A stretch of DNA of 64,000 bases, taken from the NCBI RefSeq assembly GCF_964355755.1, contig NC_092675.1, positions 28,430,912-28,494,911 of the forward strand, written 5' to 3'. The notes beneath the pieces are model-generated. The model did not search any database. It worked only from the letters and a program-made list of their open reading frames with translations, and was not told where the DNA came from. Position 1 is the stretch's first letter. The number at the start of each line of letters is the position of its first letter. A program made the position numbers and the translations under genes. Shown in pieces: positions 16,661 through 59,642 of this stretch. The DNA comes from Antedon mediterranea (lineage: Eukaryota > Animalia > Echinodermata).

Positions 16661-16997
16661 TCGCGAGTCGAGTCACCTGTGTTTTAACAAATGCGTTATT
16701 TTAAGTTCAAGCTTGCTACGGAAACGACGAGCAGTGTGGACTGACGAGGTAAGGCGGTCGTTTATCTGACATCCTTAAAGCAACTTTGGAAATAGTGTGG
16801 ATAGTATCCACTTGGATCCTTCAGTATTATTTTTGAGTTTGAACGCGTTACAGATGTTTACATTGGATTAAAGTTTTATTATAATACTTTTCAAAACGAT
16901 TTTCTAGATAGCTACGAAAAATAAAGCTTATCAGGATACTTTATACATTCATCTATTGTGTGTGACATAAAAAATACAAATTATCGTAATTGCAAAC

Positions 16998-17286
16998 ATG
17001 GTGATTGTGAAAGCGTGTGTGGTGTTTTTATTCACAACCATGATAGCCGCTGCAGAGTTTACGGCATTGCAGGAAATTCTCTCAGGAAAATCAGCGGTAA
17101 GCTCCAAGTCGGACGGCCTGTTTGCAAGCCTTCAGGCGAAAATCCCAGCAGACCCTGTTGGCCGATCAAGGAAAGACAAATCTAACAAACCACATCGCTA
17201 CATTCTACGGATATTGGAACCTCTCGTAAAAAACGATACGGCGCTAGAAAAAGGCAGTACCGTATACAGTTTTGCAGCCGAAAAAA
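16998..17286 (+). CDS. BMP3: BMP3/GDF10-like TGF-beta ligand, coding exon 1 (signal peptide and start of prodomain)
   Basis: Hydrophobic signal peptide MVIVKACVVFLFTTMIAAA. GSTVYSF resembles the BMP prodomain motif (G/A)NTVRSF. The exon ends at a GTAAGT donor (17287) in phase 1, matching the phase-1 acceptor at 44974/44975. Confidence 0.8.
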
Positions 17287-28900: not shown

Positions 28901-29979
28901 TTTGGACTCATACATTGCGCGTGTATTAATTTATTTCGGACATGAATTCAATACAATAAATTAAGATACTACTAGTCATTGGGCTTGTAAATATATATAA
29001 CATCCTTCTATTTTATTAAAGGAAACATTATCGTGGGGTTGATGACTTTTAAAGACAAATCAGTAGTAAATGTCGTGATAAGTTTACGAAGTAATCGGCA
29101 AACCGTTGACCTCAAGTTGTATGTAAACCACGTCCAGGATTGAGACCCCACATTTTCAGACGGGGTGGTGCCTTGAATGTTGATGGAGCCACACTTTCAA
29201 CCGCTTTACAACATTTTATTTAATTCACCTACATTTGTCTGTTAGAATTTGATATAAGAATAATTGTTCAAGGTTTTAATCAATTATTCAATCTGTCATG
29301 TTTTTGTAAAGTTTTTACTTGTTTCAATATTTGAATCACTTTTTAAAAGGCACATATGGAATGTGTTTACATGTGATATGATCCACATCTCCGATTGAAG
29401 TTGAATGTGAGTACATTAGGCCTACGCCTGTATAAAGACTCATTTCCCCTATATTTACAGTCTACAATCTGCTGTTGATTTAACATTATAGAGGCAATGT
29501 GAAATAAAAAGTTAAAATATTGATACGACGGATAAACTTACCTTACTAACTTACCGTATGAACATTTGACTATATTTTTAATTAATGACCTATCTATGTT
29601 TGATTATGATTAGCTTTAGATCTTAAATATTGATACATTGAAGTGAAATTACTGCTAATTTTGTCTTAAACACATATAACCTATAATGTTCCGTAGACCT
29701 ACATTCTATAATTGAAATGTATTGTTCCTTCCCTTTTTAAAATGTGTAGAAATTAATTGAACTGGACGTTTCTTAGTAATCGAAAGTAACACAAAAATGA
29801 TATTAGGCCTATCTCTAAAGATCTTACAACAGCAGGGGAAAATACTAATACACAAACAAGCAATAGTGCAATTGAACTACAGTAGGTTATAAAAGAAATA
29901 CACGTAGGAGTGACCAGTCTAAAACGCAGTATTTGGATCAGTGGAGCAACGCAGAGGCTTGATTCCTCTGGAACCCAGA

Positions 29980-30158
29980 TGCGTGGTTCCCACTAGCGAC
30001 GCAACGCAAGGACGTAATGCAACGCAAGTGAATTGACCAATCACAAGCGATGGCTTATTCGATTGTGATTGCTAACTGTCTATAACTTCGCTTGTCATTG
30101 GTCAACACGCTTACGTTGCGTTTACGTCCTTGCGTTACGTTCTAGTGGGAACCAAGCT
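29980..30158. mobile_element. MITE family A, 179 bp
   Basis: TIR (A)GC(G/T)TGGTTCCCACTAG. Inverted near-identical copy of 30546..30724 and 41011..41189. Confidence 0.9.
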
Positions 30159-30161
30159 TAA

Positions 30162-30352
30162 AGGGCCTTTCACACCTGCTCCGGCACGGTTCCGGTCCGG
30201 CGACGGCAAATCCAATCGAACGTCAATGTTTCGTTTTTACGCGGCTACGCGCATATCGATTGGTGCTTGGCCGCGTGGAGCGTCGTGAAAACGAAACATT
30301 GGCGTTCGATTCGCCGGACCGGAACCGTGCCGGAACAGGTGTGAAAGGCCCT
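30162..30352. mobile_element. MITE family B, almost fully palindromic, 191 bp
   Basis: AGGGCCTTTCACACCTG(C/T)TCCGGCACGGTTCCGGTCCGGCGA mirrored at the other end, with TAA/TTA flanks. Second copy at 59643..59990. Confidence 0.9.
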
Positions 30353-30355
30353 TTA

Positions 30356-30542
30356 AGCGTGGTTCCCACTAGAACGCAATGCAGCGACGTATCGGCGCAA
30401 AGTGTTGTATTGCGTAATCACAAGTGGGAACCGACGACGAAATAGTTTTTAGGTTTTATTTTACGCAGGAGGGGGAAAACACAATTATTAGAAGGGCATT
30501 TGCTTACGTTGCGTAGATGGCGTCGCTAGTGGGAACCAAGCT
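30356..30542. mobile_element. MITE family A variant, 187 bp
   Basis: Same TIR as family A with a different interior, shared with 1601..1769. TTA on both sides. Confidence 0.88.
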
Positions 30543-30545
30543 TTA

Positions 30546-30724
30546 AGCTTGGTTCCCACTAGAACGTAACGCAAGGACGTAAACGCAACGCAAGCGTTTT
30601 AACCAATGACAAGCAAAGTTATAGACAGTTAGTAATCACAAGCGAATAAGCCATCGCTTCTGATTGGTCAATTCACTTGCGTTGGGTTACGTCCTTGCGT
30701 TGCGTCGCTAGTGGGAACCACGCT
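30546..30724. mobile_element. MITE family A, 179 bp
   Basis: TIRs intact, TTA flanks, near-identical to 41011..41189. Confidence 0.9.
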
Positions 30725-31313
30725 TTAGTGACACTCTGGATGCCGGGCGTATGTAGCCTTTTTTGACATATTTTAATGCCTGTTTTTTTTCTCTGGTCAC
30801 TTCGCAGGCCCTCTCCCCATTAACTCCGGGGCTCCTAGGTTTAGCCAGTGAGCGCTCATATCCGATCATTTTACAACTTGGCATATTTTCTCGTAAAAAT
30901 GCATGCAATGATATCAACCCAGCCAAAATAAATCTACTATGTACTTCAGAGCTCAACCACATAGGCCTAGTAAAATTTTCACTAATCTTTTATTTTTTAA
31001 AAGATCTGCAAGGAAATTTATCATTCTTCCTTTCGGTTATTATAAATGTCAGGTTATTATTCTTTTCTGATGAAATAAATCACTTACCGTATAATATATC
31101 TCAATGAAATGCTGTCTGTTGGCCATTCATTTTAATTATTTAGGCTAATACAGCTAAACTAATGCTTCCATCTTGTATACGCTGCACTAATTGACAAGTA
31201 GTGTGTTGATTGATGACGATGTAATAAGCCAACGTAAAAAAGAACACCCATACACAGTTCACTTTGACATTAACATTGTTGTCATTCATTTCATCTTTTT
31301 TTGCTTTTGTCAT

Positions 31314-31442: not shown

Positions 31443-32283
31443 CAATTGTGTTCTTAATTCTAAATTGGTAACGTATTATTTTAGACCATATAACCCCAAC
31501 CCAACCTGCCATGATACAGGCATTATATGTGATACACACGAGATGCTGTATTGCGGAATTGTCCTATGATATTTGGACAACTATTGTTATTTTCGACATG
31601 GAACTGTCAATCATTATGAAGAACAGATGTGCCGTTACCACTTGATTTAGTTATTTTCACTAATAGGCCTTCCTGATCATTAATTAAAGTAATTAGTTCA
31701 TCTGACACAACAACACAAATTAAGATCATTGTATTAATTCAAAAAAATCACACAGAAATGTAACATGATATTTTGATTGTGATTTTTTGACAGTTCACTG
31801 AAATGCAAATGAACATGCCACACCTGGCCGCCAGTCATTTAAGCGTGGATAATCATGTATTGGCGCTTGTTGTTGAAATCACATTATTTTCCTCAACATT
31901 ATAAACTCAAAAGCCATTTTCTGTGTTTAGTGACCAATAGTTGACCAGAGCAATCTTATAAACATTACGGTATTACTTTTCTGTGGACTAAAACTATTAT
32001 TATTATTATGCAGTCGGAAGCTACACTATTTATTAACAAAATAATTATACATGTATTACTATAGACTTGCCCCAATAAGTAGTTATTTCGAGGCTGTTCG
32101 ATGTTTGTTTGAAATACAAGCTTAAGTAGTATACGTATGAAACGCCATATGTGCCGAAATATTCATCCTTTTACTAATATTAAGTCAAAACTCCGTCTGG
32201 AACCCAGACTATACTAGTATTACTAGGTCCATGGTCTAATATCAAATTAAAGTTATTTGATCATTTGAATATTCAGAGACAGT

Positions 32284-32786
32284 TGTAACTGCAGCCTACT
32301 TATAGGAGGCCCTCTAGAGTTCAAATAGATAAAAAGTGATAAGAGAGAATAAGACATTTTATAAGACATTTTTTATGACATAAAGTTTAGAGATAATCGT
32401 TGTTCAAAGTATCTTTACCATAGGCTCCAATAAGGCTACAAGGTATTTACACGTGGTTATTCATGTGATTGTAATTATAACTTATGACATGTATTTTTAA
32501 TTAGTTGAGTTTTACTTCATTGCTGAAAGCTAGCCCTAGGCCTTAGGGTATCATGTTCCCCGGCCCCATGAGTCAGACCTGTGCTTGTCTGCCTGTACGA
32601 TGATGATATGATTAGGCCTACATTGTAATGCTAATCTTTGTTTTATTATAGTTTTCACGGTGTTTATTCAAGTTGCTAATGATACTGTAATTTGTAGAGA
32701 TACAAGAGATAGTTCAGAGAATAAATAAAGGAACATCAGTATCTACAAAATTTGTAATTTATTTATGATGGACGCCTACGGTAACA
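32284..32786 (+). repeat. 5' LTR
   Basis: TGTAACTGCAG...CGGTAACA. Reads as identical to 35822..36324. Overlapping AATAAA signals at 32720-32729. Confidence 0.95.
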
Positions 32787-35700
32787 GTGAAAACTTAGCT
32801 GATGAAAACTCAATGAATCTAAGAGAACAGAGTGAGAGACGCCCTACAGCTAAGGCCCTGTCAATTAGCATTGCTACTGAAGTAAAACTGTTGAGTCAAA
32901 CTCAGAGAAAGGCTCAAGAAGCATCAAGTGAACTAGAAGATGTTTCAAGTGACGAATTTGAGATACAAACTGCATTATGCAAAGCTAAAGCTGCATTAAA
33001 GGAATATAGTGATGCTTGGTGCGTATTGAATAAATTGTATGCACAAGATAGAGATGGTATTCATCGCGAAGATCACCTGGAGAATGAGAACATATATCTC
33101 ACCATTACCAACTCCATCCAAGCTAGTATAACAAGCGCTATGGATAGGGCACATGCATTAGCCCTGGAGTGTCAAGCCTCAAAATCTGCAGCATCAAGGA
33201 GTTCATGTCGATCTATTGTTAGCATTAAAGCTCAAGCTGTGGCGAATGCTGCTGCAGCCAACAAAACTGCTCAATTTGCTGAAAAAATGGCTAAACAGAA
33301 AGCAGACCTTACAGCAAAGGAAGCTGAAATGGAAATTAAAAAAGCAGAAGCAAGGCTTGAAGAAATAAGGCGGGAAGCACAGCAAAGAACAGAACATGCC
33401 AAAGCTGAAGCAGAGTTCAAAGTTTTAGAGGCTAAACAAGCTGCAGCTGTAGAGAATGCACGAGTTGATGCAATTCAACAGGAAATTCAGAACGGATATG
33501 GAGAAATTATGACCACACCACACCAAACCTCAAATGATCATGCACTAAGGTTTTGCAACCTAACCAAACCTCAACCTCTAATGACACAGACACAAGCAAC
33601 AACAGCCCAACCGACAATGCCTCAAAATCAATCTAGCAGTACCACAGACTTAAACGCTTTAGCAGAAGCCTTTTCTTCAGCCTTCAGTATGAACCGCATA
33701 CCAGCACCAGAGCCACCAATATTCGATGGCGATCCTCTTAAGTACTATGATTGGAACGCATCCTTTAGATGGTTAATCGAAAATAAAGGAATTTCTAAGG
33801 CAGACAGAATTCACTACCTTAAGAGATACATAGGAGGCCCAGCAAAGGAAGTTGTCAGTGGATACTTTCTGCTACAAGGTGAACATGCTTATGAAAACGC
33901 TAAAGCAGTTTTAGAAAAAAGATATGGAAATCCATTTATAGTTTCCGAAGCATTTAGAGACAAATTAGACAGCTGGCCAAGGATTCAAGCAAGAGATTAC
34001 AATGGCCTTAGGCGACTCTCTGACTTTCTGAACCAATGCAACATAGCAATGAAGGAAATGAAAGGCTTAGAAGTTCTTAATGACAGCAGAGAAAACCGGA
34101 AAATTCTTCAAAAATTACCAGATTGGTTAGTGAATAGATGGCGAAGAAACGCAGTGAGCGCTATGCAAATCAAGGGTAGTTATCCAACATTCAATGACTT
34201 TTCCACATTTTTGACGACCGAAGCCGAAATTGTTTGCGATCCTGTTACCTTAATACCAGAAAATGAAACAAAATTCACAGAAAAAAGTTCAAGATATCGA
34301 AACCAATCTCAAACGCTAGCCACCAGTATCAGTGCAATGCCATCATGCTTCATGTGTAAAATGAATAACCATCACCTAAGTGACTGCAGAGCGTTTGCCA
34401 GAAAACCTGAAACCGAAAAACAGCAATACATCAAGCAAAATGGTCTATGCTTCAGCTGCTTACAACATGGCCATGTGTCAAGGAACTGTAACCAGAAAAG
34501 TATTTGTAAAATTTGCCAAAGGAGACATCCAACAAGTCTCCATGTAAAGGAGAGAGATTCAGCTCACGAGATAACTGAAGCACAAATGCAGGTTATCAAG
34601 TTACAAGAGACCGTCACTAAGAAAGAGACACTATTGCAGGATTTAGCCACAAAGTATGCTAAGAAAAATGATGAGTTAGCAGAAATTAAAGAAGAAAGAG
34701 ATCTGGTTAAAGGGAAATCAGATGACGAACTTGCTTATATGAACAAACAACTTCAACAGGCTGTAGCGTCTAATCCATCTAACATTAGTGAACAATTGGC
34801 TTTACTACATGCAGAACTTGATGAGACTTATGGACAACAAATTGTTATGATTAAGTCACAGCTGCAGGAAAGACACCAGAATGAAATGCAAGAATTGCAA
34901 AAGAAATGTGAAGAAGATGCTGAAACTAACAACAAAATTAGAGATGCATTAGAACAGAATTTAAAGGAACTCCAAGACCAATTAGATGAGAAAGAGATGG
35001 ACTTAGAGGCTTGTCAGAACATCCAAAAAGACTTCGAAGATCAAGTTGCACTTCTTAATAATCACAACAAGGAACTAACAGAGAAAATGGAGAAAGAAGA
35101 AGATGTAACTTTGCAACTTCATCGAGAGCTTGATGAAGCTAACCAAGAAATAAAGAAGAAAACTTCAGAGTTAGATGAAAGAGTTACCCAGTTTATTGAT
35201 GAAAAGGAAAGATTGGAAAATGAATATCGGAAAAGGTTTGAAGATGAAAGTGCCCATCAAGAAGATATCCATCGCATTGCATTAAACCAACAGCGTTCTG
35301 AAGTTGTTGCTGAAATTGATCGCAAAATGAAACCCAAAGTAGAAGAAGTTGAAGACCATTTCAAGGTTCAATTCTGTACTGAAAAATCGGACAAAGAGAA
35401 CGAATTTGTTCAAGAATTCCAGAACATTCGACAGCAGTTAGCAGAATCTCATGCAGAAGAGATTGAAGCTGTTACAAAGAAAATCACAGATGAATTAACT
35501 GAAAAGCATGAGATTATGCTAGAGGAGGAAACGAAAAAGCTCTTCAAAGGAATAAATGATATATCTGAAGAGAAGGTATCAACGGAGCAGAATCGGAATA
35601 AAGATTGGATTGAAAATCAAGGAAAAGAATTAAAGGAACAAATTGTAAATATAAAAGTCGAGCTTCAACAAGTGAACAAAAAGAATTCAAAAATACAAAC

Positions 35701-35809
35701 TGTTAACTTATTCTTTATAGTTTTGGTAAATATTGTTAATATACTTCCAGTTTTGCATTACTTGTGTTTATTCTGGCAAGGGTGGGAGTTAAGGTTAAAT
35801 CATAGATGA
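32765..35809 (+). CDS. BEL/Pao Gag fused to an AKAP9-like coiled coil with a hydrophobic C-terminal tail
   Basis: BEL/Pao gag core (PEPPIFDGDPLKYYDW...YLKRYIGGPAKEVV...LEKRYGNP...KLPDW). Three zinc knuckles at 34346-34543: CFMCKMNNHHLSDC, CFSCLQHGHVSRNC and CKICQRRHPTSLH. Then about 380 aa of E/K/Q/L-rich coiled coil. No protease D(S/T)G, RT YxDD or integrase motifs. Confidence 0.9.
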   Translation: MMDAYGNSENLADENSMNLREQSERRPTAKALSISIATEVKLLSQTQRKAQEASSELEDVSSDEFEIQTALCKAKAALKEYSDAWCVLNKLYAQDRDGIHREDHLENENIYLTITNSIQASITSAMDRAHALALECQASKSAASRSSCRSIVSIKAQAVANAAAANKTAQFAEKMAKQKADLTAKEAEMEIKKAEARLEEIRREAQQRTEHAKAEAEFKVLEAKQAAAVENARVDAIQQEIQNGYGEIMTTPHQTSNDHALRFCNLTKPQPLMTQTQATTAQPTMPQNQSSSTTDLNALAEAFSSAFSMNRIPAPEPPIFDGDPLKYYDWNASFRWLIENKGISKADRIHYLKRYIGGPAKEVVSGYFLLQGEHAYENAKAVLEKRYGNPFIVSEAFRDKLDSWPRIQARDYNGLRRLSDFLNQCNIAMKEMKGLEVLNDSRENRKILQKLPDWLVNRWRRNAVSAMQIKGSYPTFNDFSTFLTTEAEIVCDPVTLIPENETKFTEKSSRYRNQSQTLATSISAMPSCFMCKMNNHHLSDCRAFARKPETEKQQYIKQNGLCFSCLQHGHVSRNCNQKSICKICQRRHPTSLHVKERDSAHEITEAQMQVIKLQETVTKKETLLQDLATKYAKKNDELAEIKEERDLVKGKSDDELAYMNKQLQQAVASNPSNISEQLALLHAELDETYGQQIVMIKSQLQERHQNEMQELQKKCEEDAETNNKIRDALEQNLKELQDQLDEKEMDLEACQNIQKDFEDQVALLNNHNKELTEKMEKEEDVTLQLHRELDEANQEIKKKTSELDERVTQFIDEKERLENEYRKRFEDESAHQEDIHRIALNQQRSEVVAEIDRKMKPKVEEVEDHFKVQFCTEKSDKENEFVQEFQNIRQQLAESHAEEIEAVTKKITDELTEKHEIMLEEETKKLFKGINDISEEKVSTEQNRNKDWIENQGKELKEQIVNIKVELQQVNKKNSKIQTVNLFFIVLVNIVNILPVLHYLCLFWQGWELRLNHR

Positions 35810-35821
35810 TTTGGGTGGGAG

Positions 35822-36324
35822 TGTAACTGCAGCCTACTTATAGGAGGCCCTCTAGAGTTCAAATAGATAAAAAGTGATAAGAGAGAATAAGACATTTTAT
35901 AAGACATTTTTTATGACATAAAGTTTAGAGATAATCGTTGTTCAAAGTATCTTTACCATAGGCTCCAATAAGGCTACAAGGTATTTACACGTGGTTATTC
36001 ATGTGATTGTAATTATAACTTATGACATGTATTTTTAATTAGTTGAGTTTTACTTCATTGCTGAAAGCTAGCCCTAGGCCTTAGGGTATCATGTTCCCCG
36101 GCCCCATGAGTCAGACCTGTGCTTGTCTGCCTGTACGATGATGATATGATTAGGCCTACATTGTAATGCTAATCTTTGTTTTATTATAGTTTTCACGGTG
36201 TTTATTCAAGTTGCTAATGATACTGTAATTTGTAGAGATACAAGAGATAGTTCAGAGAATAAATAAAGGAACATCAGTATCTACAAAATTTGTAATTTAT
36301 TTATGATGGACGCCTACGGTAACA
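35822..36324 (+). repeat. 3' LTR
   Basis: Direct repeat of the 5' LTR, preceded by the PPT GGGTGGGAG (35813-35821) and followed by the TSD ACAGT. Confidence 0.95.
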
Positions 36325-39138
36325 ACAGTAACCTGTAGGTATAGGCTACATAATAATGTTGTTATGCATCGCTATGTACAAGTCCCCCGACGTGAATTTG
36401 TCAACACAAGGACCTTTCGCATTGACGGACCTAAGGGAAGCCAATGTCAAGTATAATAAAGACTAACCCCAGAGAAGCGAACGCGTATGACTCGGTCAAG
36501 TACTATCGAGGATGGATGCTAAAAAGAGAGCTATACTCCCCAGGAAGGTTACTAACAAGCTGGATCTGGTATTTGTCCATTTTTATCTTTTCTCATTTTC
36601 TATAATAAAATCAATTACCACAGTTATAGTGGTACATAAACACTGGCACTTGTATAGTTATATAGTTGAATTCAATTTCCTTCTCAATTTATAAAATGCT
36701 CTTTTTAACCTCATTGACGCTTACCATTTGCTCAAGGTTTACATTTTAAAATGTTGCCTGGCTGATTTTCTTTGATAATGTTTGAGGAAGAGGAGTATAG
36801 TTAACCCTGGCGTTTTTAAACAGTTTAAGGTCAACCCAAGTTTGTTTGTCACACCAGTACTCTGGAATCTATTCTCAATCTTGTTTAGTTTGTACTTGTA
36901 AAAACGCAGGGTTGGTGAAATATGTCCATTATAGGGCCATGGTTTGTCCATAAGTTTTTTTTGTTCACAATTGAGGGCACTGTTGTTCAATTAGGGGCTT
37001 TTTTAGGATAAGAAGCGCCCTCTGTGATTTGCGTTGTAGAAACTTTTATGTGTTTGGCCTGGGGTCATCGTACTAAATAATGCTATGCTACCTATATAAT
37101 AATTCTATTGATCACGATACGATTCAAATTGACTAAATACTTGTAAATGTAAATGTTTGATGTACCGCTGAGGTCGTACTGGGCAACAACATGGTCTCCC
37201 TTTATAACTTGTTCCATCTCTACAACTCGTGTATCATTGCCCATTACACTTTCTGATTACATGAACTTACACGTTAATAGCTTGACTTGTGGGCACATAC
37301 GCGTGTGTTTGTTAACGTCGGGTCTTGTTTGTCACTGTCAGACGATGTACCAGTCTCATCGCATTCAATAATAATATTTTTGATAATAAACAGCATCTGG
37401 GAGTTTGTGCATTCCATTACAAAATAAAATTATAGTACAACATTCATGTATATTATGATTGTACTTTATGTTTTCTGACAAATATAATATTTGTTCTATA
37501 GTTCGTATAAAAAGTGAACATTGCAACATAGGATTGTCAACTCCACAAACTGTTAAAACTAGGTGTCTATGTATGCATTATATCCAGCCAGTTACGAAAT
37601 CAAACACATTTCCTCAAAATGCTCATCAAAATTACTATAGATCAATTATCAATTATTTTTTACTTAAACCTATAATAAATTTAAGTAATTTTTAATTTTT
37701 TTTTAAATGACTTATAAAGGTTTCGACTTTTTGTCAGATTATAATCAAACTGGATCAAACACTATGCTAATCCACATCACTGTAAGTCAGCGAACAGGAG
37801 TTTTCCAAAATATATTTGCGAACCCAATTTAATATTTGTATGATAGCTGTTTATATAAAATGTCACTCAAAGGGCTGTAAGTCTATGTTGTTCTAACAAT
37901 ATTTGCCTAGAGAGTTTCCTGTAGGCCTAATTAGTTTACTGAAGGACACGCTTGGTGAAATCTAAATAAAACGGATAAAATAGAACGCATTTTTTACTTC
38001 TGTTTACTAGATTCCTTTAGTACACGAACACGAATTATGAGTACATTCGAGAAAGTGATGTTCAAGACAAAACAAAAGCATTTGCGTACTGTTTAGTATC
38101 ATTCGGGTAATAAAATGCCCCTTTCTGCTCATTCGTGGCTGTTGTTTTTATAGGCCCTAATCACGTCACATCTAAAAAAGCGCAGAATATTATAACAAAA
38201 CTACACACCTGTTATCTTTCACTCAGGAATTTAATAGTTTTAAATTTTATCATTTCATCAAACAATTAGGTAAAGTAGACACGATTACCACGAGCACTAT
38301 TATTCGCCTGCTTAGCATCATAACACAACAAAGTAGCGATCGAATAAAACCCACAGAAATTCTTTGATTGACAATCAACTAAATAAACGTCGGCGTTAAT
38401 TTCCCGCAAAGTACAGATTAAACAAACCAACCGTCATTTAAAATATATACGTGGAAAAACATTGACTCAGTGATACTAAATTTTTCCCCTTAGCACACCC
38501 CTTATCTCCTTATTCGATAAATTGGAGAAGACTTTTTTAGTTGACTCTAATTTTTTCGTCTAGCTTGCGGTCAATGGAGCAAGGTCTTACGATTTTGTTT
38601 CTTTTTAAAACCCCTTGGCAGGTGGGAAGCAGCGGGTAAATTGATTTTAATACAAACGGGCAAATATCGTCGAGAACACAATTGGATGGCGGCAGAGATG
38701 AAGCCATGTTTTCGGCAAATCTGTCTCCATAAAAGAAACTCGTTACAGTCTTGTTTAGTTCCTCTGCACTACGATAGGGTAGTTGATTCGTACCTGTTAA
38801 GCTTTATCATCCAGTATTTTGGCGCATTTATTATATGCATTTTTTATTATGATTATGCTTAGCAGATTCTTGGTACTGTATCAACATCTATAGGCAAATT
38901 CCGTGATACATCATAACATGTGGTTCTCATTCGACGCCTACATCCTAATACAGTACAGTACAATAAGCTTCCCTATTTCAGAATCCTGGATCAGCCACTG
39001 TAGTCAGGGGGAAAATGGCAAAAGTTTTCCTACTTTCTAGGATTTTTATCAGATAATCTATAACATGACCACATTGCTAATTTTGCCATTTTTTGATCTG
39101 ATTGATAAAATTCATAACCCAAAACAAAGCCTTTTCAT

Positions 39139-40714: not shown

Positions 40715-41189
40715 GGACTAGGACGGACGCGCGCAAGAACGAAAGCACAACGCAAACGAATTAACCAATTACAAGCGACAGTTAAAATAAATTATTTGCG
40801 TTATGCTAATGTTCTTATGTTCTTGCGTTGCGTCCTAGTGGGAACCACAGATTAGTCTCATTTGAGCCTTAAACTTAGTTTTGCAGTGGGATGAAACGCA
40901 AGAAACGTATAGTGCACAGAGGTTAGTTGGCCAATAACAACCGATGGATCATCCGAACTGTCGCTTATGATTGGTCAACTCACATGCGTCCTTGCGTTGC
41001 GTCTCTCTCAAGCTTGGTTCCCACTAGAACGTAACGCAAGGACGTAAACGCAACGCAAGCGTTTTAACCAATGACAAGCGAAGTTATAGACAGTTAGCAA
41101 TCACAAGCGAATAAGCCATCGCTTGTGATTGGTCAATTCACTTGCGTTGCGTTACGTCCTTGCGTTGCGTCGCTAGTGGGAACCACGCT
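40715..41189. mobile_element. Cluster of family A MITEs: two degenerate copies plus a young 179-bp copy (41011..41189)
   Basis: The intact TIR-bounded copy abuts older copies ending ...GCGTCCTAGTGGGAACCA and ...GCGTCCTTGCGTTGCGTC. Confidence 0.8.
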
Positions 41190-42055
41190 TTAAGGAATAA
41201 AGTAGAAACAGACATGGGTTACTGTGGTTGAACCATGGACATTGGGATTAGAAGGAACGTCTTTTAACCATCTAGTGTACGGCTCTTCTGACCATCCTGC
41301 GACCCGTAATATTTCCATATTAATATAGGCCTATATTATTTGAAATGTTTAATATTTTTTTATAGGTTTATAATTTAAAGTCAAGGTCAACAAGAAGGAT
41401 TATAAAGCATACAAATAATCCCTCGATAATTTTGCTAATTTGTATTGACATTATTTTCTTATTATGATAACCAAAACACAACTTTGAAAATAATGAGTTT
41501 GAATACATTAATACATCCGCAATTCAATTACCGTATTTTTCAATCAAGATTTTCAATTTAAAAGATAGCTATAAAATAGGCCAATAACCCTAATTAAACG
41601 TCAATGCCTAATTAAATATAATCATTAACTATCACGAACACGCATTCGGACTCTTCTCGATTGATGTTGATAGAATAATTAACAATAACTTTGATGTAAA
41701 CCAGGCCTAGGCCAATCTTGTGTTTCTGGTTCGGAATCATCGCGACAAAGTGTCTCAGAGGGCAGGATTTCCGTTCTAACCAGTATCTGTGGGTTAGGCC
41801 TAACAGGTCTAACCTTCACCGGGTATATGTTTAATAAGGAACAGACTAAACCATATAGAAAAAAACTCACAAATAGATTTTATGAATTCGTACAATAGTC
41901 CCATGATTTGTTACAAATCAGGGCATCATTTTATTGACCCTATCAACAATTATATAACGTTCACACAAAATTGTTTTTTTAGAATTTCACTAAAGAACCT
42001 TTGAAAATCGTGAGAGCACAAGAATCTCGAGTGTTTAATACAGTCAATATGTTTA

Positions 42056-44974: not shown

Positions 44975-45930
44975 AATCTACTTGCACTGACAAGCACATG
45001 TTTCTTATAAAGTTGAAACCAAAAGGCGAAAAGAAGAATATCCTTAAATCTGAGCTTTACATAAGTAATCGAAAACCGCTACAACCGTCGCAATTTAAAA
45101 ATACCAACATGAGCGAACTTGTAATAATGGCCTACGATGTACAAGATAATGACAACTGCGCCAAAATCGGTACGTTTTCGTTAGCTGAGTTTGGGGGCGA
45201 AGGATGGCAAACGCTTGACATAACATCACTTCTTTCACAACTCACCGAAGAATTAACGAAGAAAGCAGTATTGGGACTAACATTCAAAGTAAAAAGCAAA
45301 AGGTCTGATGAAAATAACGAAATTGATTATAAAAACGACTGGTGGAATAAGTTGATGTCAAAGAAAAAAATGTTGCAGAAGCGAGGACGACCATTTATTC
45401 TTGTTCACGTAGAAGACAAGTCTGTGGATACATCCCTGACGTCACCACCATTTCAACGATTATCAGAAACCGTGACAAGCGCCATCAACAGTCGATCAGC
45501 AAGGAGTGTTTTTGTTCCAAACCCAAAGCCAATCAACGAATCAAATTATTACACGTATAATATGATGTCCAACGAATATCCAATGGCACCTGTTGAAGTT
45601 GTAAAAGCACCAGAACAAAAATTTCCCGAATTTCTTGACCAAAATTCCAGGCGAAGGAAAGAGAGAAAAAACAAAAAACGTAAAAACAGGCGAAAGAATG
45701 GAATTGCTCCTTTTGGTGGTGAAGATACCAAACCTTTATCAAATGATGCAGAACAAATTGTTAATCTGCAAAAGACTGAAAATGAAGGATACAAAAACAC
45801 AGAAGGACTATGCTCAGTTAGAAAATTGAGTGTTAATTTCAAAGATCTTGGTTGGGATAATTTTGTGATTGCTCCAGACTTGTTCACACCTAACTATTGT
45901 GCAGGCTCCTGTCCGTATCCACTTCAAAAG
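44975..45930 (+). CDS. BMP3: BMP3/GDF10-like ligand, coding exon 2 (prodomain, furin site, first half of cystine knot)
   Basis: Acceptor tttctttcag|aa. Prodomain motifs NILKSELY, GWQTLDIT and RPFILV. RSAR furin site at 45493-45504. SNEYP resembles NNELP of vertebrate BMP3. Mature domain CSVRKLSVNFKDLGW...IAP...YCAGSCPYPLQK ends at AAG|GTAATA in phase 0. Confidence 0.88.
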
Positions 45931-46530: not shown

Positions 46531-46716
46531 TCACTGAATCCTACAAATAACGCACTGATCTTGGGCATGGTGAAGTCAATGGGGATCCCAGTGCCGGCGC
46601 CTTGCTGTGTACCAACCAAAATGTCATCAATCAGTATTGTATATTTGGACGATGAATCGAATGTATCACTGCGCAACTATCCAAACATGCAAGTGGAGTC
46701 GTGCGGTTGTATGTAG
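46531..46716 (+). CDS. BMP3: BMP3/GDF10-like ligand, coding exon 3 (C-terminal cystine knot; absent from the ORF track)
   Basis: After a strong polypyrimidine-AG acceptor it reads SLNPTNNALILGMVKSMGIPVPAPCCVPTKMSSISIVYLDDESNVSLRNYPNMQVESCGCM*. The K|SL intron position matches vertebrate BMP3 (PMPK|SLKPSNHA, recalled). Spliced CDS is 1431 nt = 476 aa plus stop. Confidence 0.9.
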   Translation, partial: SLNPTNNALILGMVKSMGIPVPAPCCVPTKMSSISIVYLDDESNVSLRNYPNMQVESCGCM

Positions 46717-49314
46717 CCTGCGCATGGATATCGCGACTCTGCAGTTTTCATTATTGGACAACCATAAGAGAGATTTCTCTCTGCAGTATCAAAATCTACA
46801 TGGACACAATGTTTTCTAGTGCAGAGCCTGATATCTTCAACAGTATTACAATTTATATTGATCTGTTAGAAAAAGTTACCTCATAAAATAAACTGGAAGT
46901 GCTTAAGTCGATGTGCGCATGTCTGTTGTGACCGTTTGTCACTGCCATATTGTATCGCTTTGTCCTAATCTCCAACTCCATCTCTGTGTGTTTCTATATT
47001 TAAGATTTTAAAATAAATTTAATTATTATGAAGTAGATTCTTTATAAAAAAAATATGTTAAAAGTGCTTATTAATTTAAATTATCAGCATTGCCCAGTTT
47101 GTCGCACTTTTGTGAAAACTAAATTGTATGTATAACTGCTAAAATTTAACTTATTTCAAAAACACTTATATAATAAATTTGTACAAGTGATATTGTATTA
47201 TGTAATAAGTACACTCTCCGATATGAAAATAAATGTATTAAATTTGTACACAAGAAAAAACATTTTATAACTTGTAATAAAAAATTAAAGAAAATTGTAT
47301 AAAATGCTAAGGCTTACTTCTGTAATTTAGCGCCTTTTATGGAATCTAACAAAAATGTGCTTTTTGTCTAGGGTGTAACAATGAAGGTATTACAATAGGC
47401 CAACTTTAAATATCTATAACAGGTTTAAATAGCCTATTTAGTTTATTGAGAGGACTACCGTATTTCATGGAAAAGAAAAAATAGAAAAATTTTTAGGTAA
47501 ATTTAAATATTGTAAATTGTATGAACTATAAATAAATAATGACGTAATCCTTGTAAATGATCGAGTGAGTTTTTTATGTTGCCTACGACTATACCCACCA
47601 ATATTGTTTTTCAATGCAAATTTATCAACAAAAACAAAAATTGTTTCTTAGAATTATAAGCTTCGAAAGTTTATACTGTAGCATATTTATAAATAAAATG
47701 AATTTTAACAATGTAAGTCTGAATCGATTGTGGGTGGGTGATAGAGTTATTGATTCAGCTGCTATGTGATTTGATGAACGAAATATGTAATATGGAGTAA
47801 AGAATCTAGAATTGAAAGTATTTGTATATGATAGCATTAGATACATTTGAAATTATCGAAGTATAAAAACTACTAAGATATTTATTCCAACGACAGTTTA
47901 GATTTAGGTATATATTATATACTTATTTGATTGTAATAAAATTTAATCCTTTGTCTTGTAAATTGTTGTTTCTATTTTCTCTTTTTTCTTCTTTAAAAGT
48001 TGAGATCCACCATAGTGACAAAATTTGGCAAAACTATCTCATTTTACCCATCTAGAATCTAAGCATTATTGTTATGCATCATTTCCGAAAAATTTAGCAT
48101 GATGTTAAATAGCAATTTTGTATGCGTATTTTGGAAAAGTAATATTATATTTTTAAAATCTTTAGCATAATTTCCAGTCAAATCTAACATTTGTCGAAAA
48201 CACAATAACCCATTTTTATGTCAAATCTAGCATTTGTCGAAGATACAACTTTTTTTTGATAGATCAGACCTCTTGTACAATGAAGGTATTGATGAAAATT
48301 GGGCATTTATATCAAGTTTCAGTACGTCTAGCATAATTGTGTGCTGTATCTGACATTATCTGTCCAATCACTGGCCACCCTGGATTCCACATAAGCACTA
48401 TTTGATTTTGTTTATCTTCTAGTAACTTCAACGGGACAATGAAACAGCCTGGTTTACAAGTATTGGTGAATCCAAAAATGAATTGATTCCATGTGCGCAT
48501 GCGTTAATAAATGTAGCATGAACCTCGATCACCACCGGGACCTTGTCTTTTCTCGCTTTCTTTTGATAAGTGGTTCGGAATTGTTACGGCATGCAGCATT
48601 ATAACAACCGATTAAACTAACTCACAGACACTAAGATCTATATACATTTATCATCGCGTGTCAACTATTAAAATGTGTGTTCCTCGTGCGGAACAACTAA
48701 ATCAAATTATTGTTGAAGTTAAAGTTTAGTGCGTGTTCCGACACAACGTATTATTAGATCTGCCGTCTGTTGTAATTGCCTTGTTTAAATCAAACTCATT
48801 CAACATTAAGATCTATTTCAACCCTAATGGAATTATAATGTAGGCTACAAATTGATTGGTAATTCATCTTAAATTCATCATCTGTTTACAATCGAATTTT
48901 AATTGCTAGAAATTTAGACATTTTTTCACAATCGGAAAACCAAACGTCTGAAACTTTTGAATTGTGACCAGGATATCAGTACATTGAATAGTATAGTTTA
49001 TTTGTAGATCTAGAAAACTCAGATATATTTGAGATCCGAGTTTTCTAGATCTGAGTTTCTAGGCACCCTATAGTTTACGTTCTTTCCTCAGTTTCAAAAT
49101 GTCAATTTGACTGCGCCACTTTATTTGCTATTTTCACATCCTCAAATTCCAATTATTAATTCAAAATTTTCAGATACATTATATTAAGATGTCATATTTA
49201 TTTCACCACCAGACATTATCTAAAATGAAACCTTGTTCGGATACTGAATCATTTCGAGTGACTTCGGTATTTACAAAACATTTTTTATAATAAAACACAG
49301 GGAACACTTTCTTT

Positions 49315-53086: not shown

Positions 53087-53279
53087 TCATATGCTACCAT
53101 TTCCTTTCGTCTTTCCGGCTGATTCTATGATTTGCATTAGACATCGGCCGAACTCCTCTAAAATGAGCTGTTCTCCTATATGGGGCAAGTCGCCGTTCCT
53201 CTCCGTCTCCTCAGCCTGGGCTAATAAACACTGACAGGTGGCTTCAGCAACATCGTTTGTTATAAATGAATAAGGTAAT
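53087..53279 (-). CDS. LIN54: LIN54 last coding exon
   Basis: LPYSFITNDVAEATCQCLLAQAEE...ILEEFGRCLMQIIESAGK, the conserved LIN54 C-terminus, with TGA stop. Spliced CDS is 2010 nt = 669 aa plus stop. Confidence 0.95.
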
Positions 53280-53737
53280 CTGAACAGTAAATAAAATGAT
53301 AACAATTTAATGTTTTGTATTCTATTCTCAATATTACCAATATAAACTATTATACAAATATTGCCTACTTAGAGGTGAAATATAAGATTTGATTTCCACA
53401 AGGGAATGATATTTTGCTCGAGGGAATATATATTCATGAGATATCATTCCCTGAGTCAATATCAAACTCCTGGAGAATTTACTAGATTTTATATGTTTAA
53501 TGACAGGGACACGATAATCACGCAAAAATTAATTAACAATCCTCGCAGCAGTAGTATTGTGATGCAGTTTTATCCAAACATGTTTACGTATTTATATAGG
53601 CTGTAATATAAGCAAATAATAATTGAAATCCATAATTATTAATTTTGTAATACGTGCTTGGTTTTTGTCTTCTGCTTTCTTTATTAAACCCTTTTGAATT
53701 TATTGATGTATAAATCAACAGCCAATTCTCGGTGCAG

Positions 53738-53905
53738 TATCTATTTCCAAAGTATCATAGGAATATTTGGTAATACAACATCACATGTGTTTCACATGTA
53801 TTTAGTAGTAACCTAACCCTTAACCTTACATGATACAGGCACAGCATGTGATATAAATCAGATGCTGTATTACCAAATATTCCTATCATACTTCGGAAAT
53901 AGATA
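53738..53905. mobile_element. Palindromic repeat family D with a central telomere-like TAACC(C)T motif
   Basis: About 45-bp inverted arms around TAACCTAACCCTTAACC. Related degenerate copies near 19480-19640, 31490-31575, 38860-38930 and 52097-52270. Confidence 0.65.
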
Positions 53906-53982
53906 GTATGTGGAGATAAAGAAATGGGAATCGGGTGATATCAAAGTAGAAATTAAATGAAAATTAATTATTTTTTTTAATA

Positions 53983-56320
53983 CAGTCGACTCCGCCTAAG
54001 TCGAATTCGCCTAAGTCGAAAAATCGCGAAAGTCGAATTTTTTGGAAAGTCCCAATTCTTTCCTATACATTACTGTGTAATTAGTTATCCGCACTTGGCG
54101 GATAACTCCTTGTGATTGTATAGGATCATCATTTTTTTTTTTTTTTCTGTATTATTCTTATTTCTTTCCTTCCATTTTTGTGTAGAGCGTTTCTCTAACA
54201 TGTGTAAACATAACATTTCATAACTTTGACAACATGTGGGCATTTATGTGAAGTTGTGCACCTCCTATTTTTGAATGACGTCAGAGTTGCGCAACGTGAC
54301 TTACGCGCGATTTTATAAATTTCGCGTATTTAACATAGGTCAAAAACCAAATAACATTTTGAATTGAAACTTTGCAGAAGTTTAATTTATATTGTGCGCT
54401 AACTTTCTGTGGAAAAAAAATTGCGAGTTTTACACAAATTTACGCGCGCACGCGCATTTAAAATTTGAAGATGCGAAAAAACTATTTCTAATCGAATTTC
54501 TACGCGTTTCATGTCATTTTGAGCATGTCAAAAATTCCCACGCGCCCGCAATTTTTTACGCGCGCGGTGGGCACGTAGCGTTAAAAACATCGCTTTTTTG
54601 AGTGATTTATGTTTTTCCAGCCTTTTCTAGTAATTTTACAAACTTTTAAACAATTTTGATTTAAAATGACGTTATACGAGCACGTAGAATTGAACAATTT
54701 GCACGGGTTTTTGATGAAAAAAATCAAAAATTCGTTAAAATTAAGCCTTTTTTTAAACAGTCGTAGTTTCTATACTAAACAATGAAAGTTATTTTTATTA
54801 CATATTCTGGAAGTTGATGAGTTGTAGATATCGGATCATGCATTAATATGGCTAACAGGACATTTTGATGTCATCGTAAGGCCACGCGAATATAAAATTT
54901 AGGATTTTTGTATCTTTCTTCATAGCTCATCACATTTAATAGAGCGCATCTACACTTATCCGTTTTCCATTTTAACCCCGATTTTGATATTGTCTAGGTC
55001 AATCAACTATCTTTCACATGAGTTAAAAATATTTTTATTTTTATGACGTCATCATGCCTAAAAATTTAAATTACGTGTGGCATAAATTTCATATTTACAG
55101 TAAAATTAAATCTGTTATAGCTCGTAAGAATGAAATGTGATAATCATGATTAAAACGTTTTCTGGAAGCTATTGAATTGTAGATACGAAATCATGTGAAC
55201 ATTTTGCTAATCGGATGTTGTGACGTCATCATATGGCCAGTTATATAAAAAAAGTCGTATTTTCATCTTTTGCGTTATAATTCATTACATTTAAAAGAGC
55301 GCGCATCAATATTTCACGTATTCAAATTTCTTGTACACGCTAATATGTTGTTGCTGAGATAATTTCCTTCCGAAATTGCTACCTTCGCGTTTCATTTTGA
55401 AACCGTCAGCATGTTAAAAATTGGAATAAATAGCGGGTCCCGTATTTTCCCCTATTCTACACTGTATGTGATTGTGATATGTATACAGATTATACTGTGT
55501 ATACTATATGACACAAAATAACAGAATTCAGCAATAACAACATAATCATATTCTTCAGTCCAGGTCATAATGCCATAATCTTTTTCCGTGTGCAATATTC
55601 CAACGCATGACGTGCTCGTGGCGTTTCTCGTGCGGATAACTAACTCGTCAAAGTGACGAGTTTCATGTCTAGTTTTTATTTGTAAGTCGAATTTTTCTAA
55701 GTCGAAATTCGTCTAAGTCGACGTCTTTTTGCGGTCCGAATACACACATTCTTTAGTGATTTATATCGTATAAGTCGAAGTCACAAATTACGCGGCAACA
55801 ACGCGCTAAAAAAGCCGATGAAACGTACGTAATTCGATAAACAAACAACAGAGGGGATAATGTGGGACCATATCGGTTCTCTCAAGCAGGTTGTATAGTA
55901 TAGGCGGCGTCCTACAACTCGCGCTAGTGTATAGTGTATGAGTTGTTTAAGCGTTGAGAACTTGAGCGGCGTTTTGTGGGTACCTATTTTGTGCTAGACA
56001 GATGGCAATAAACAATGGATACCGATTTCGAATAAGAACCGAAATGTATTTATTATACGTTTTTGTATTGTTTTGGGCTTAAACCATAAAAGAAAATACA
56101 GTTTATCATTGCCGATAAAGAGGCTTAGCATTTATTAGGCCTAGCTAGCTAGCTAAGCAAACTCAATTCAAGAAGGCTCATCGCGTGGGCCGCGATCGCG
56201 ACAGGGCAGGGTCCACTAGGCCTAGCCATAGCGCGGCTAGTGAGTGAGCCTAGGCCTAGCATTTTTTTGGCAAATCTGTAAGTCGAAGTTCGCGTAACTC
56301 GAATTTTTATACCGGTCCCA
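53983..56320. mobile_element. Tc1/pogo-like non-autonomous element, interrupted and right end truncated
   Basis: Starts TA|CAGTCGACTC with repeated TAAGTCGAA subterminal motifs. The pattern resumes at about 55680 after an insertion and again at about 56280. Confidence 0.65.
54081..55672 (+). mobile_element. Helentron-associated (HINE/DINE-1-like) non-autonomous element
   Basis: Subterminal inverted repeats TTAGTTATCCGCAC (54081-54094) and GTGCGGATAACTAA (55630-55643), a short 5' hairpin, a 3' stem-loop AACTCGTCA-AAG-TGACGAGTT, a CTAG end, insertion in a T run and no TSD. Confidence 0.75.
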
Positions 56321-56482
56321 TATTTTTATAATTTTTAATAATTTTATAATCCCTTCTTCTTTCATTTAGGAGAAAACTTCATTGCTGAAGGCTACTGTTC
56401 CACTGGCTCTAGATTGTGAAATTTCTGAATTGATAATAATTGTAATAAAAGATTTTTAAAAAATGCATTAACCACCACTAAC

Positions 56483-56679
56483 CTTTCACCAGACTCATTT
56501 GTCATAGGTGCTTTTGAAGGAAAGTCCTGGAATTGTGAAAGTTTTGATTTGGCTGCTGTTTGTTGCTGAACTCTGACCTCTGCGGCATCTGCTAAATGCA
56601 TCAGCGTTTTCCGTTCAGGACTTTCTTCAAAGTTTTTGCAGCCATAACACTTACAAGCTGACGAACACAGAATTTTGGC
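56483..56679 (-). CDS. LIN54: LIN54 coding exon 8
   Basis: [48 protein letters not shown], a highly conserved LIN54 segment. Phase 0 to 2. Confidence 0.95.
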
Positions 56680-56772
56680 CTGTAAGAAATCACATTAAAT
56701 TAAGATTTTTGTTCAATTGATATAATAAGGTGTGAACATGCATTATTTATATAAAGCAGACAGTAACATTCT

Positions 56773-56912
56773 ATCTCTGTCTGCAATATAAAAATGTATG
56801 TGGCAAAAAAATGTGATGCACCCATATATGGACATGATTATGTCATATCACTACCATATTTGGGCACATCACACTTGTTTTGTCAAACTAGTTTAATAGT
56901 GTAGACAGAGCT
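56773..56912. mobile_element. MITE family C
   Basis: Right TIR ATAGTGTAGACAGAGCT followed by TTA. Interior matches the other copies. Confidence 0.7.
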
Positions 56913-57150
56913 TTATGTAATGTGCTTCAAAGTTCTAAACATCATCAACATTTTTTTAATGAAATTTCACTTACAAAAATGGGCTAGAAATATCCAAATG
57001 CATGCAAATAGATTTAAAATAGGCAAATCGGTATAATTACGATTTAGTACACATAAGCGGAGATCAAAAGGACAAAAAATGAGAAATATAATAAGACTTA
57101 ATTGGTTCATTACTACAAAAAATAATGGTAAATAATTATGAAAAAGTTAC

Positions 57151-57391
57151 CTCATAACATTCACAATAGTTCTTGAGACATCCAGACCGTTTACAGTTGC
57201 ATCCTTTGTTATGGCGGCGTTCCCCTGCCGTGCCTCGTCCCTTCCCGATCTTCGGATGAAAAGCCTGGGGGTTCCTTTCAAGACATGAGCGGATTGCACG
57301 ACTTCTTTCATCTTCATGATCCAAATTATTCAAACAATTATTGCAGTTACAATTGCTACAAAATTCTCCATTCGCAAAACAATCGCAATAT
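57151..57391 (-). CDS. LIN54: LIN54 coding exon 7 (CXC-hinge-CXC)
   Basis: [11 protein letters not shown]...[14 protein letters not shown]...[21 protein letters not shown], the diagnostic tesmin/TSO1 CRC domain. Confidence 0.97.
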
Positions 57392-57936
57392 CTAGAAAGC
57401 AATTGGAACAGAGAATTATATATTTTACTATTGCACGCGACTAAAAACTGAAATTGGGGAGAACAGGGTGAACCTAAGTGAACTTAATCACTGTAGCTGA
57501 GCCGGTTGACACAACCCCAAATGAATAAAATGTTCATATACTGTATATATAAATCCAAAGGCAAATTACTGAAAAAAATGACAATCCTGTGGGTATCAGT
57601 GGCTGGATCTCAATGGAGATACAAAAATAAAAAGCGAAAAGCTAAATCAAAACGATAAAGTAAACAGCCAGAAAAGTTAGCAGAGCTTTCGGGCAACACT
57701 AGCCCTTCATCAGTGCAAGTGATACTGTCATCATCATTGTGATACATCAAATCAGAGGTGCTAATGTGTAGCTAGTGAGAATCAGACAAGCACATCATTA
57801 ATACAGTATACTATACTATATTTTACAGTACATTCTTTAATACAAGCAAATTCACTCTTACTTACCCATTTAAACTATGACGTACAGCTGAGATTGCTGT
57901 TGGTGCTTTGGTATATACTGTATATATATATATATA

Positions 57937-58580
57937 CAATATTCCAGTTTCATTGATGAAGGGCTAGTGTTGCCTGAAAGCTCTGCTAATTTTTCTGCAT
58001 ATTTTACTTTATTGTTTTGATTTAGCTTTTCGCTTTTGTTTTGTATCTCCATTGAGATCCAGCCACTGATACAGTATTGTCAGTATTTTGCCTTTGGATT
58101 TATATATATATATTATACAATATTCCAGTTTCATTGATGAAGGGCTAGTGTTGCCTGAAAGCTCTGCTAATTTTTCTGCATGTTTTACTTTATCGTTTTG
58201 ATTTAGCTTTTCACTTTTGTTTTGTATCTCCATTGAGATCCAGCCACTGATACAGTATTGTCAGTATTTTGCCTTTGGATTTATATATATATATTATACA
58301 ATATTCCAGTTTCATTGATGAAGGGCTAGTGTTGCCTGAAAGCTCTGCTAATTTTTTTGCATGTTTTACTTTATCGTTTTGATTTAGCTTTTCACTTTTG
58401 TTTTGTATCTCCATTGAGATCCAGCCACTGATACAGTATTGTCAGTATTTTGCCTTTGGATTTATATATATATATATATTATATAATATTCCAGTTTCAT
58501 AAATGGTGGGCTAGTGTTGCCCGAAAACTCTGCTAATTTTTCTGCATGTTTTACTTTATTGTTTTGATTTAGCTTTTTGC
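57937..58580. repeat. 181-bp tandem repeat, about 3.5 copies, in the intron after LIN54 coding exon 6
   Basis: Near-identical units. The repeated spurious ORFs at 58052, 58233 and 58414 are spaced exactly 181 bp apart. Confidence 0.92.
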
Positions 58581-58663
58581 ATATTTTATTATGTATATGA
58601 GATATCCACTAAAGTTAGCAGTAACTGTACACATGGAACCAACTTGCCTGGGTAAATAACTAA

Positions 58664-58802
58664 AGCTATGTCTACACTATCAAACTACTTTGACAAAAAA
58701 GTGTCATGGTACAGTAGCGATAGGCCGAAATATGGTAATGATATGACATCATCATGTCCATATATAGGCACATTACATTTTTTTGATAGTGTAAACAAGG
58801 CT
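58664..58802. mobile_element. MITE family C
   Basis: AGCTATGTCTACACTATCAAACT ... TTTGATAGTGTAAACAAGGCT. Confidence 0.75.
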
Positions 58803-58914
58803 AAAGAATTCAAGTTTTAAGAACGTACTTGAAAGAAACATATTGAAAGAACTTGGAAATGCATTGTTTTAGAGGAGGGCTGGTGATGTTTTCATAAAAT
58901 ATGAACATACTTAC

Positions 58915-58989
58915 AATTTTAAACACTGAGACCTTGTGCAGTTACATGGTTTTCTAGGCCTTGTTCCTGGAGGTTCTGGTTGACTGCCA
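58915..58989 (-). CDS. LIN54: LIN54 coding exon 6 (start of first CXC domain)
   Basis: Reads GSQPEPPGTRPRKPCNCTRSQCLKL. Canonical AG and GTAAGT, phase 2 to 2. Confidence 0.93.
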
Positions 58990-59390
58990 CTAGTGGATAT
59001 AACAGTAATGTTATCAGTTTAGTAAAACAATACAATAATTTGAATTGTGGTAGATGGTCTACCCACTTTACCGCAACTTTTACAATGTATGTAACAATTC
59101 AAGTGCATGCCTGTTTTTTAAAGACGAGCGAGTGAGATCACACTCCTAAACTACCCTTGAGGAGTGCGATTTACAACACTCTTAAATTTGGTAAACTTCT
59201 ACACACCAAAATACAAACAGCACACCTACAGCATCCCTGAATGTATTGAGGAGTCCAGTCATTGTGATACATCAAATCAGAGGTGCTAATGTGTAGCTAG
59301 TGAGAATCAGACAAGCACATCATTAATACAGTATACTATACTATATTTTACAGTACATTCTTTAATACAAGCAAATTCTCTCTTACTTAC

Positions 59391-59482: not shown

Positions 59483-59642
59483 CTAACAAGATATCAAATT
59501 ATATATTTAATTTGTAAAACATGTTTTTATTAAGGTACAAATATGGAAAATAACGTTTTAAATGCCTTGTGTCTTTGGTAGAGTAAATCAGGAATAGGTT
59601 CTCTATGGACCAAAGGCACAGAATGTAAAGCATCTTTCCTAA

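Follow-up and report, generated by a model that had tools for sequence, protein, structure and literature searches.

An LTR element within an intron of a TGF-beta family gene

The window, by which we mean the whole 64,000-nucleotide stretch of Antedon mediterranea DNA that was analysed, contains three exons of a TGF-beta family gene (16995-17286, 44977-45930, and ~46535-46720, plus strand; Pfam TGF_beta, E = 6e-10), which we take to be BMP3/GDF10-like. On the minus strand, exons at 53087-62800 belong to a gene, presumably lin-54-like, in which CXC-type Cys-rich repeats occur alongside Thr/Ser/Gln-rich exons. A MITE-like family with long inverted repeats (D2, D5, and I1-I3: 29979-30727, 41006-41192, 46186, 50717, and 51322) and a 181-nt tandem array (57933-58660) were also observed. 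An LTR element lies within the first intron (~27.7 kb) of the TGF-beta family gene and on the same strand, a position from which the TGF-beta family transcript could be affected.

The element measures 4041 bp and carries a single open reading frame (ORF) of 1014 aa (32765-35809, plus strand; Table 1). Its TG...CA LTRs, its short target duplication, and the presence of an empty site are as expected of a BEL/Pao element, and the two LTRs show 0 differences over 503 bp. We compared the window with read contigs from four of the 11 listed sequencing runs, X1 and X2 (organism A) and X8 and X11 (organism B). Empty-site contigs were present in X1 and X2, where 32278 is joined to 36325 and 5 letters fit either flank, and in X8, where 32283 is joined to 36350. 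The element is a recent insertion that is still polymorphic. Since the start codon of the ORF lies within the 5' LTR, the first seven codons are repeated in the 3' LTR (32765-32786 and 36303-36324). Inspection by eye of the sequence downstream of the 5' LTR revealed no TGG-type primer-binding site. Other copies in X1 and X2 have an LTR that is 12 nt shorter (at 35887), and X1 displays a skip of 209 nt within the LTR (35978-36188), bounded by GT..AG; these possibly represent LTR subfamilies, or a splice or deletion form. Just 5' of the 5' LTR, at 32112-32211, is a repeat of very high depth that both organisms have.

Table 1. Features of the LTR element and its insertion site, numbered by position in the window
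Feature	Position	Strand	Remarks
Target-site duplication, left copy, 5 bp	32279..32283	+	Identical 5 letters at 36325-36329
5' LTR, 503 bp	32284..32786	+	TG...CA; contains the ATG of the ORF (32765)
BEL/Pao Gag, aa 1-597	32765..34556	+	N-terminal part helical; Pfam and alignment with L001
Captured host coding sequence, aa 598-977, 380 codons	34557..35695	+	Host frame; donor contigs, homologs P0006-P0008, Atlas
AELDE-x-YG motif, conserved	34796..34876	+	aa 678-704
3' junction overlap, 6 nt, common to donor and parent-type element	35690..35695	+	Donor matches to 35695, parent from 35690
37-codon tail from the element's own 3' end	35696..35809	+	Hydrophobic stretch aa 979-1003
PPT-like purine-rich tract directly 5' of the 3' LTR	35810..35821	+	Sequence reading by eye
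3' LTR, 503 bp	35822..36324	+	
Target-site duplication, right copy, 5 bp	36325..36329	+	

The ORF joins a Gag to host-derived sequence and lacks pol

The ORF encodes, in this order, a Gag, 380 host-derived residues, and a hydrophobic tail of 37 aa. A Pfam scan identified DUF1759 (PF03564) at aa 320-463 (E = 2.4e-13), and three Cys/His knuckles follow at aa 528-593. Alignment of aa 310-598 with the Gag-Pol protein L001, used for this comparison in preference to L002-L007 (38-aa matches), revealed 41% identity over 306 aligned columns and stopped at aa 598. After the third knuckle L001 continues into an RT-bearing, Pol-like region (RVT_1, E = 0.003, below cut-off), whereas this element has host sequence in the same place. 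The Pfam scan detected no pol domain (protease, RT, RNase H, or integrase) in the ORF, and there was no further ORF of at least 150 aa between the LTRs; the element is non-autonomous. A Pfam match to Flg_hook in the ORF was below cut-off and was rejected. The protein cluster of the element has 3 member sequences.

The donor gene is present in two species

In organism B, contigs from X8 (6717 nt, depth 57) and X11 (4890 nt, depth 82) carry the segment without Gag. Both align with 34557-35630, with 59 differences and one 18-nt gap, pass over 387 nt, and align again with 35622-35695; the captured stretch corresponds to 1544 nt of the donor minus 18 nt (at 34911) and minus 387 nt (at 35630). The two contigs extend past both ends of the match into non-Gag sequence, with 30 letters identical in X8 and X11, and the flanking letters, read by eye, continue the open frame. 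No fusion was seen in organism B, these being the only X8 and X11 contigs on 34380-35821. Near-identical loose ends at 35695 in X1 and X2 indicate that organism A has the donor gene as well. The segment is captured host sequence, as the first-pass annotation had proposed, and its donor gene is present in two species; the annotation had drawn the segment at 34544-35700, slightly wider than the host-derived 34557-35695. Run X8 also contains a diverged match to the LTR at 32284-32787, with 40 differences and 31 gaps, as well as short pieces of gag at 34033-34286, so the element family predates the fusion.

The segment is intron-free, which had been read as compatible with capture from spliced mRNA. 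The donor is equally uninterrupted: its 1544-nt span has no intron in X8, which appears DNA-like (intron-flank depth 63, donor depth 57), or in X11, which appears RNA-like (flank 2-3, donor 82), where the nature of X8 and X11 is a reading from depth and X2 is merely guessed to be RNA. The absence of introns in the segment is therefore no proof of mRNA capture, and alignment to the host gene, the check that had been suggested for an mRNA origin, neither passes nor fails. Among the homologs described below, P0007 aligns with P0006 over aa 283-1645, and the unmatched ends of P0007 resemble intron read-through, which suggests that this region is a single giant exon in a relative too.

A parent-type element, two junctions, and many copies of the fusion

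In X1, a Gag contig of depth 460 stops at 34558, a parent-type contig (4339 nt, depth 142) connects 34572 with 35690, and fusion contigs have depths of 330-388. The Gag depth of 460 approximates 330 + 142. The ~4.2 kb interior of the parent is likely pol, judging from its size and from a loose end in X2 that reads RPIHKL at 35690 with a stop five codons on. We take RPIHKL, which was read by eye, to be the BEL integrase-end motif.

Template switching, which the first-pass annotation had called compatible with the segment, fits the junctions. Counted without a chance model, donor and parent-type sequence overlap by 6 nt at the 3' junction and by 2 exact nt at the 5' junction (where the parent-type alignment continues to 34572), and the 387-nt deletion has a 9-nt overlap. 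Short overlaps also mark microhomology-mediated repair, and the chimera could have arisen without RNA, through DNA-level recombination or repair involving a copy of the element and a host exon. Neither the uninterrupted donor, which makes an RNA step dispensable, nor the lack of intron loss favours the RNA route. We nonetheless consider a DNA-level origin quite improbable, because template switching, as outlined in the available text of PMC5131818, agrees with the sense orientation, with ends that lie within coding sequence, and with the almost exact exchange of the interval from gag to the 3' end. Host coding sequence in place of internal ORF sequence between LTRs, which the donor and parent-type contigs show here at both junctions, is characteristic of an LTR-mediated retrocopy, and the median overlap at the switch points of such retrocopies is given as 6 bp in the same text (Tan et al., 2016; PMC5131818). 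Reverse transcriptase thus likely switched template twice onto a co-packaged host RNA, which would have produced the in-frame gag-host fusion. The fusion element would then likely move in trans with the enzymes of its pol-bearing parent, and we infer that the fusion protein is made.

Comparison of fusion and empty-site depth yielded 330 vs. 43.7 in X1 (~7.5-fold) and 57 vs. 6.1 in X2 (~9-fold), and with the parent included, fusion : parent : empty site is ~7.5 : 3.2 : 1 (X1) and 9 : 1.5 : 1 (X2). Depth is not a count of copies, and X1 might come from the same sample as the window; these values suggest that the fusion is present in many copies. The fusion also exceeds the parent in depth, by 2.3 : 1 in X1 and ~6 : 1 in X2, which an advantage or a shorter length could explain equally. 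The fusion differs from host-type alleles of organism A at ~26 of 1074 sites (2.4%). Since the LTRs differ at 0 of 503 positions, the capture is older than the present insertion.

The donor is likely of the AKAP9/pericentrin family

The first-pass annotation had assigned the segment to AKAP9 on the strength of a 27-residue motif, LALLHAELDETYGQQIVMIKSQLQERH, whose position was given exactly (34796-34876, aa 678-704, with AELD at aa 683), and had argued that the match exceeds generic coiled-coil similarity. For the match to P0006 this was borne out, as the segment and the 27-mer both scored above every shuffle. Specifically, the score of the segment against P0006 was 321 (shuffle maximum 181, n = 300; heptad-block shuffle maximum 213, n = 300), and that of the 27-mer alone was 82 (maximum 55 in 2000 shuffles). 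Across the element and three relatives, 30 of 139 columns were invariant overall and 13 of 27 within the motif, which is the most conserved block.

A phmmer search of 1.84 billion proteins returned 4 hits, namely the element itself, P0006, P0008, and P0007 (E = 9e-13 to 2e-11), of which P0006 is a named sea-urchin (L. pictus) protein called only 'trichohyalin-like'. In the Atlas, the top cluster for segment residues 60-140 was 'A kinase anchor protein 9 (Fragment) family' (0.92), closely followed by CENPF (0.91) and FAM184A (0.90); shuffled proteins reach 0.9 in 4-10%. The Atlas returned no AKAP9 row for P0006 1-430. Neither AKAP9 nor any other vertebrate protein passed in the phmmer search (E = 0.001) or in the other homolog searches. 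The whole segment searched against proteins of 677-2000 aa retrieved the element itself alone (1 of 7989 candidates), and a search with residues 285-425 of P0006 among proteins 3396-5000 aa in length retrieved 0 of 128 candidates at E = 1, which is weak evidence and a slight counterweight to the AKAP9 name. For the segment, sequence searches of the PDB gave matches at the level of apolipoprotein noise (best E = 0.022); P0006 gave none, and a 4-sequence profile gave one bZIP chain; a single-sequence AlphaFold model (pLDDT 45.9, pTM 0.26) contained long helices only. Pfam found no PACT domain in the segment, and there was none in P0006-P0008, which resemble partial gene models. The available text of PMC4542290 and PMC6070874 contains no alignment of the AELDE-x-YG motif.

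We conclude that the donor likely belongs to the AKAP9/pericentrin family and that its N-terminal coiled coil was the part captured, as judged from sequence comparison. The top Atlas cluster is the family that the first-pass annotation had already named. Since no vertebrate AKAP9 could be aligned directly, the family name is likely rather than proven. The first 20 residues of P0006 resemble the AKAP9/pericentrin N-terminus. From these hits, the host is likely an echinoderm or something closely related. As far as is known, invertebrates have a single gene corresponding to both AKAP9 and pericentrin, so that 'AKAP9/pericentrin-like' is a fair name for the donor.

The captured residues change nearly neutrally

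Counts of dN/dS were made on 40 of the 72 variant rows, comprising 20 of the element lineage, 14 found only in organism B, and 6 varying among copies; the assignment of low-depth X2 alleles to the host gene is interpretive. Within these 40 of 72, the element lineage had 16 non-synonymous and 4 synonymous changes (omega 0.9-1.4) and the gene of organism B had 6 and 8 (omega 0.17-0.27), a difference with Fisher p = 0.036, or p = 0.13 without the dense cluster at 35144-35156. Rows varying among copies comprised 2 non-synonymous and 4 synonymous changes. For gag, 14 rows (among 40 listed, with 130 further) gave 8 non-synonymous and 6 synonymous changes, which was not significant. The counts do not support constraint on individual residues across the whole segment; with 16 against 4 changes and an omega of 0.9-1.4, the captured part mostly drifts.

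Near-neutral change in the element lineage, together with the lack of PACT, leads us to favour, with some reserve, the reading that the captured part is a passenger. Its frame may have stayed open because Gag is selected to be translated with no premature stop, and not because the captured residues are used. Some observations count against a passenger. The frame was kept through the 5' junction and the 387-nt deletion, which has a chance of 1/9, or of 1/27 if the 18-nt indel is included (the indel could be in either direction). In addition, a 339-nt tract that contains the motif (34782-35120) has 0 of ~26 element-lineage changes (p = 0.001, or p = 0.01-0.04 if just 16-20 changes are independent). 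Gene conversion from the host gene explains this unchanged tract as well as selection does. The element-lineage differences fall into three clusters (34678-34781, 35121-35231, and 35366-35417) with clean tracts between them, a pattern that may stem from selection, from conversion by the host gene, or from events that altered several bases at once.

Possible Golgi, membrane, or centrosome roles of the predicted fusion protein

Hydropathy analysis of the tail gave a Kyte-Doolittle 19-mer value of 2.24, compared with at most 1.01 across aa 1-968, and 0.8% of 100000 tail shuffles reached this value in a post hoc test. The hydrophobic stretch is a possible membrane anchor. The tail owes its existence to a difference of 2 nt in length, at 35716, between the element and the parent-type contig (either direction is possible), and the two alternative frames reach a stop within 7 codons.

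The first-pass annotation had envisaged the fragment as an address tag for the centrosome or Golgi. Certain retroviral Gags assemble pericentriolarly (PMC4486188, available text) and Cer1 capsids use germ-cell microtubules (PMC3315495, available text), both in keeping with a centrosome tag. The AKAP450 experiments, as presented in the accessible part of PMC3105543, argue otherwise: only the C-terminal, PACT-bearing fragment reached the centrosome, and the N-terminal fragment went to the Golgi and bound neither gamma-tubulin nor GCP3. As centrosome targeting requires PACT, which the segment lacks, the centrosome address was not upheld and we regard it as highly improbable. Capture from the N-terminal coiled coil leaves the Golgi as the sole address that the fragment could plausibly carry.

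With the frame open and the motif tract unchanged, a Golgi or membrane role is conceivable but unlikely. The coiled coil, perhaps together with the tail, would tether Gag particles to the cis-Golgi or other membranes, which would have helped the element outnumber its parent; we assign this a low probability. The vertebrate counterpart of the motif presumably lies near the end of human aa 159-463. That piece, the first coiled-coil stretch, binds GM130 and targets the cis-Golgi according to the available sections of PMC3105543, and the capture includes the motif. The unchanged tract, the kept frame, and the hydrophobic tail brought into frame by the 2-nt length difference also speak for such a tether. 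Against it stand the neutral amino-acid change in three tracts and the equally good account of the unchanged tract by host gene conversion. Moreover, the capture begins at the equivalent of P0006 aa 299 and the preceding coiled coil is missing, and the tail has two Asn, a Pro, and a His, while 5% of T-rich DNA shuffles reach a Kyte-Doolittle value of 1.6. The invertebrate protein is not known to bind GM130. Taken to its end, the tether would yield a golgin-like Gag, that is, a capsid with a stolen AKAP9 Golgi-binding coiled coil and a new C-terminal membrane anchor, which from sequence features we likewise hold to be improbable. If such a Gag exists, it would bring its particles, in germ cells, to the cis-Golgi or to membranes that organise microtubules, and the element could thereby outcompete its pol-bearing parent.

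The fusion might instead be dominant-negative, either poisoning parent capsids or driving the host scaffold off the Golgi. In human cells, N-terminal pieces of AKAP450 dislodge the endogenous protein and prevent microtubules from nucleating at the Golgi (PMC3105543, available text), and the fusion places an acidic stalk of 380 aa (net charge -35) after basic knuckles (+9). However, identical LTRs, an empty allele, and high depth are those of a mobile selfish element, not a fixed host factor, and we think a dominant-negative role very unlikely.

Relation to known gene captures

Plant TR-GAG elements are non-autonomous and have LTRs and gag without pol. The present element shares this organisation, but comes from an animal, is of the BEL/Pao type, and has its Gag fused to host coding sequence. 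The gag-onc fusions of acutely transforming retroviruses are replication-defective and helper-dependent and contain captured host coding sequence. These fusions and maize Bs1 (cited in the available text of PMC5131818) resemble the present element in being defective, helper-dependent, and built with captured host coding sequence; here, in contrast, neither overall constraint on the captured residues nor an effect on the cell is in evidence.

The closest likeness is to the retrocopies of Tan et al. (2016; PMC5131818), in which, as far as the available text goes, a portion of the internal ORFs between the LTRs gives way to part of a host coding sequence, switch-point overlaps are short, insertion is sense and in frame in 14 of 17 Drosophila cases, one mosquito case involves a BEL element, and some retrocopies re-transpose as non-autonomous elements. 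The present element differs in retaining a whole Gag with its knuckles, fused in frame, in a fusion that apparently outnumbers its parent, and in a donor span that is intron-free, so that there was no intron to lose. Closer Gag-fusion cases may be found in the supplementary tables of that study. Extra ORFs with coiled-coil and transmembrane features occur in bdelloid LTR elements (PMC5408684, available text), but as separate ORF3s beside intact pol and common to several element types, whereas here a Gag fusion takes the place of pol and the host donor is visible. The AKAP450/AKAP9 fragments AK1 and AK1B (Hurtado et al., 2011; PMC3105543, available text) likely derive from the same region, the first N-terminal coiled coil. 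In contrast to these, the captured sequence is invertebrate, shows ~35% identity even with the related sea-urchin proteins, is missing the first part of the coiled coil, and has two internal gaps.

A literature search that covered few subscription papers found no paper on the capture of AKAP9 by an LTR retrotransposon gag, on non-autonomous pol-less BEL/Pao elements, or on the motif itself, and none of the LTR gene-capture papers, judged by title, concerned this element. The element is a further, well-resolved case of LTR-mediated gene capture. It presents a clean polymorphic capture in an animal LTR element, with the donor, the parent-type element, both junctions, and the empty site all visible, and is therefore a good case in which to ask whether a captured sequence is a helper or a mere rider. 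If Gag were indeed steered to the Golgi, a transposon would have taken a host localisation signal, as retroviruses take oncogenes.
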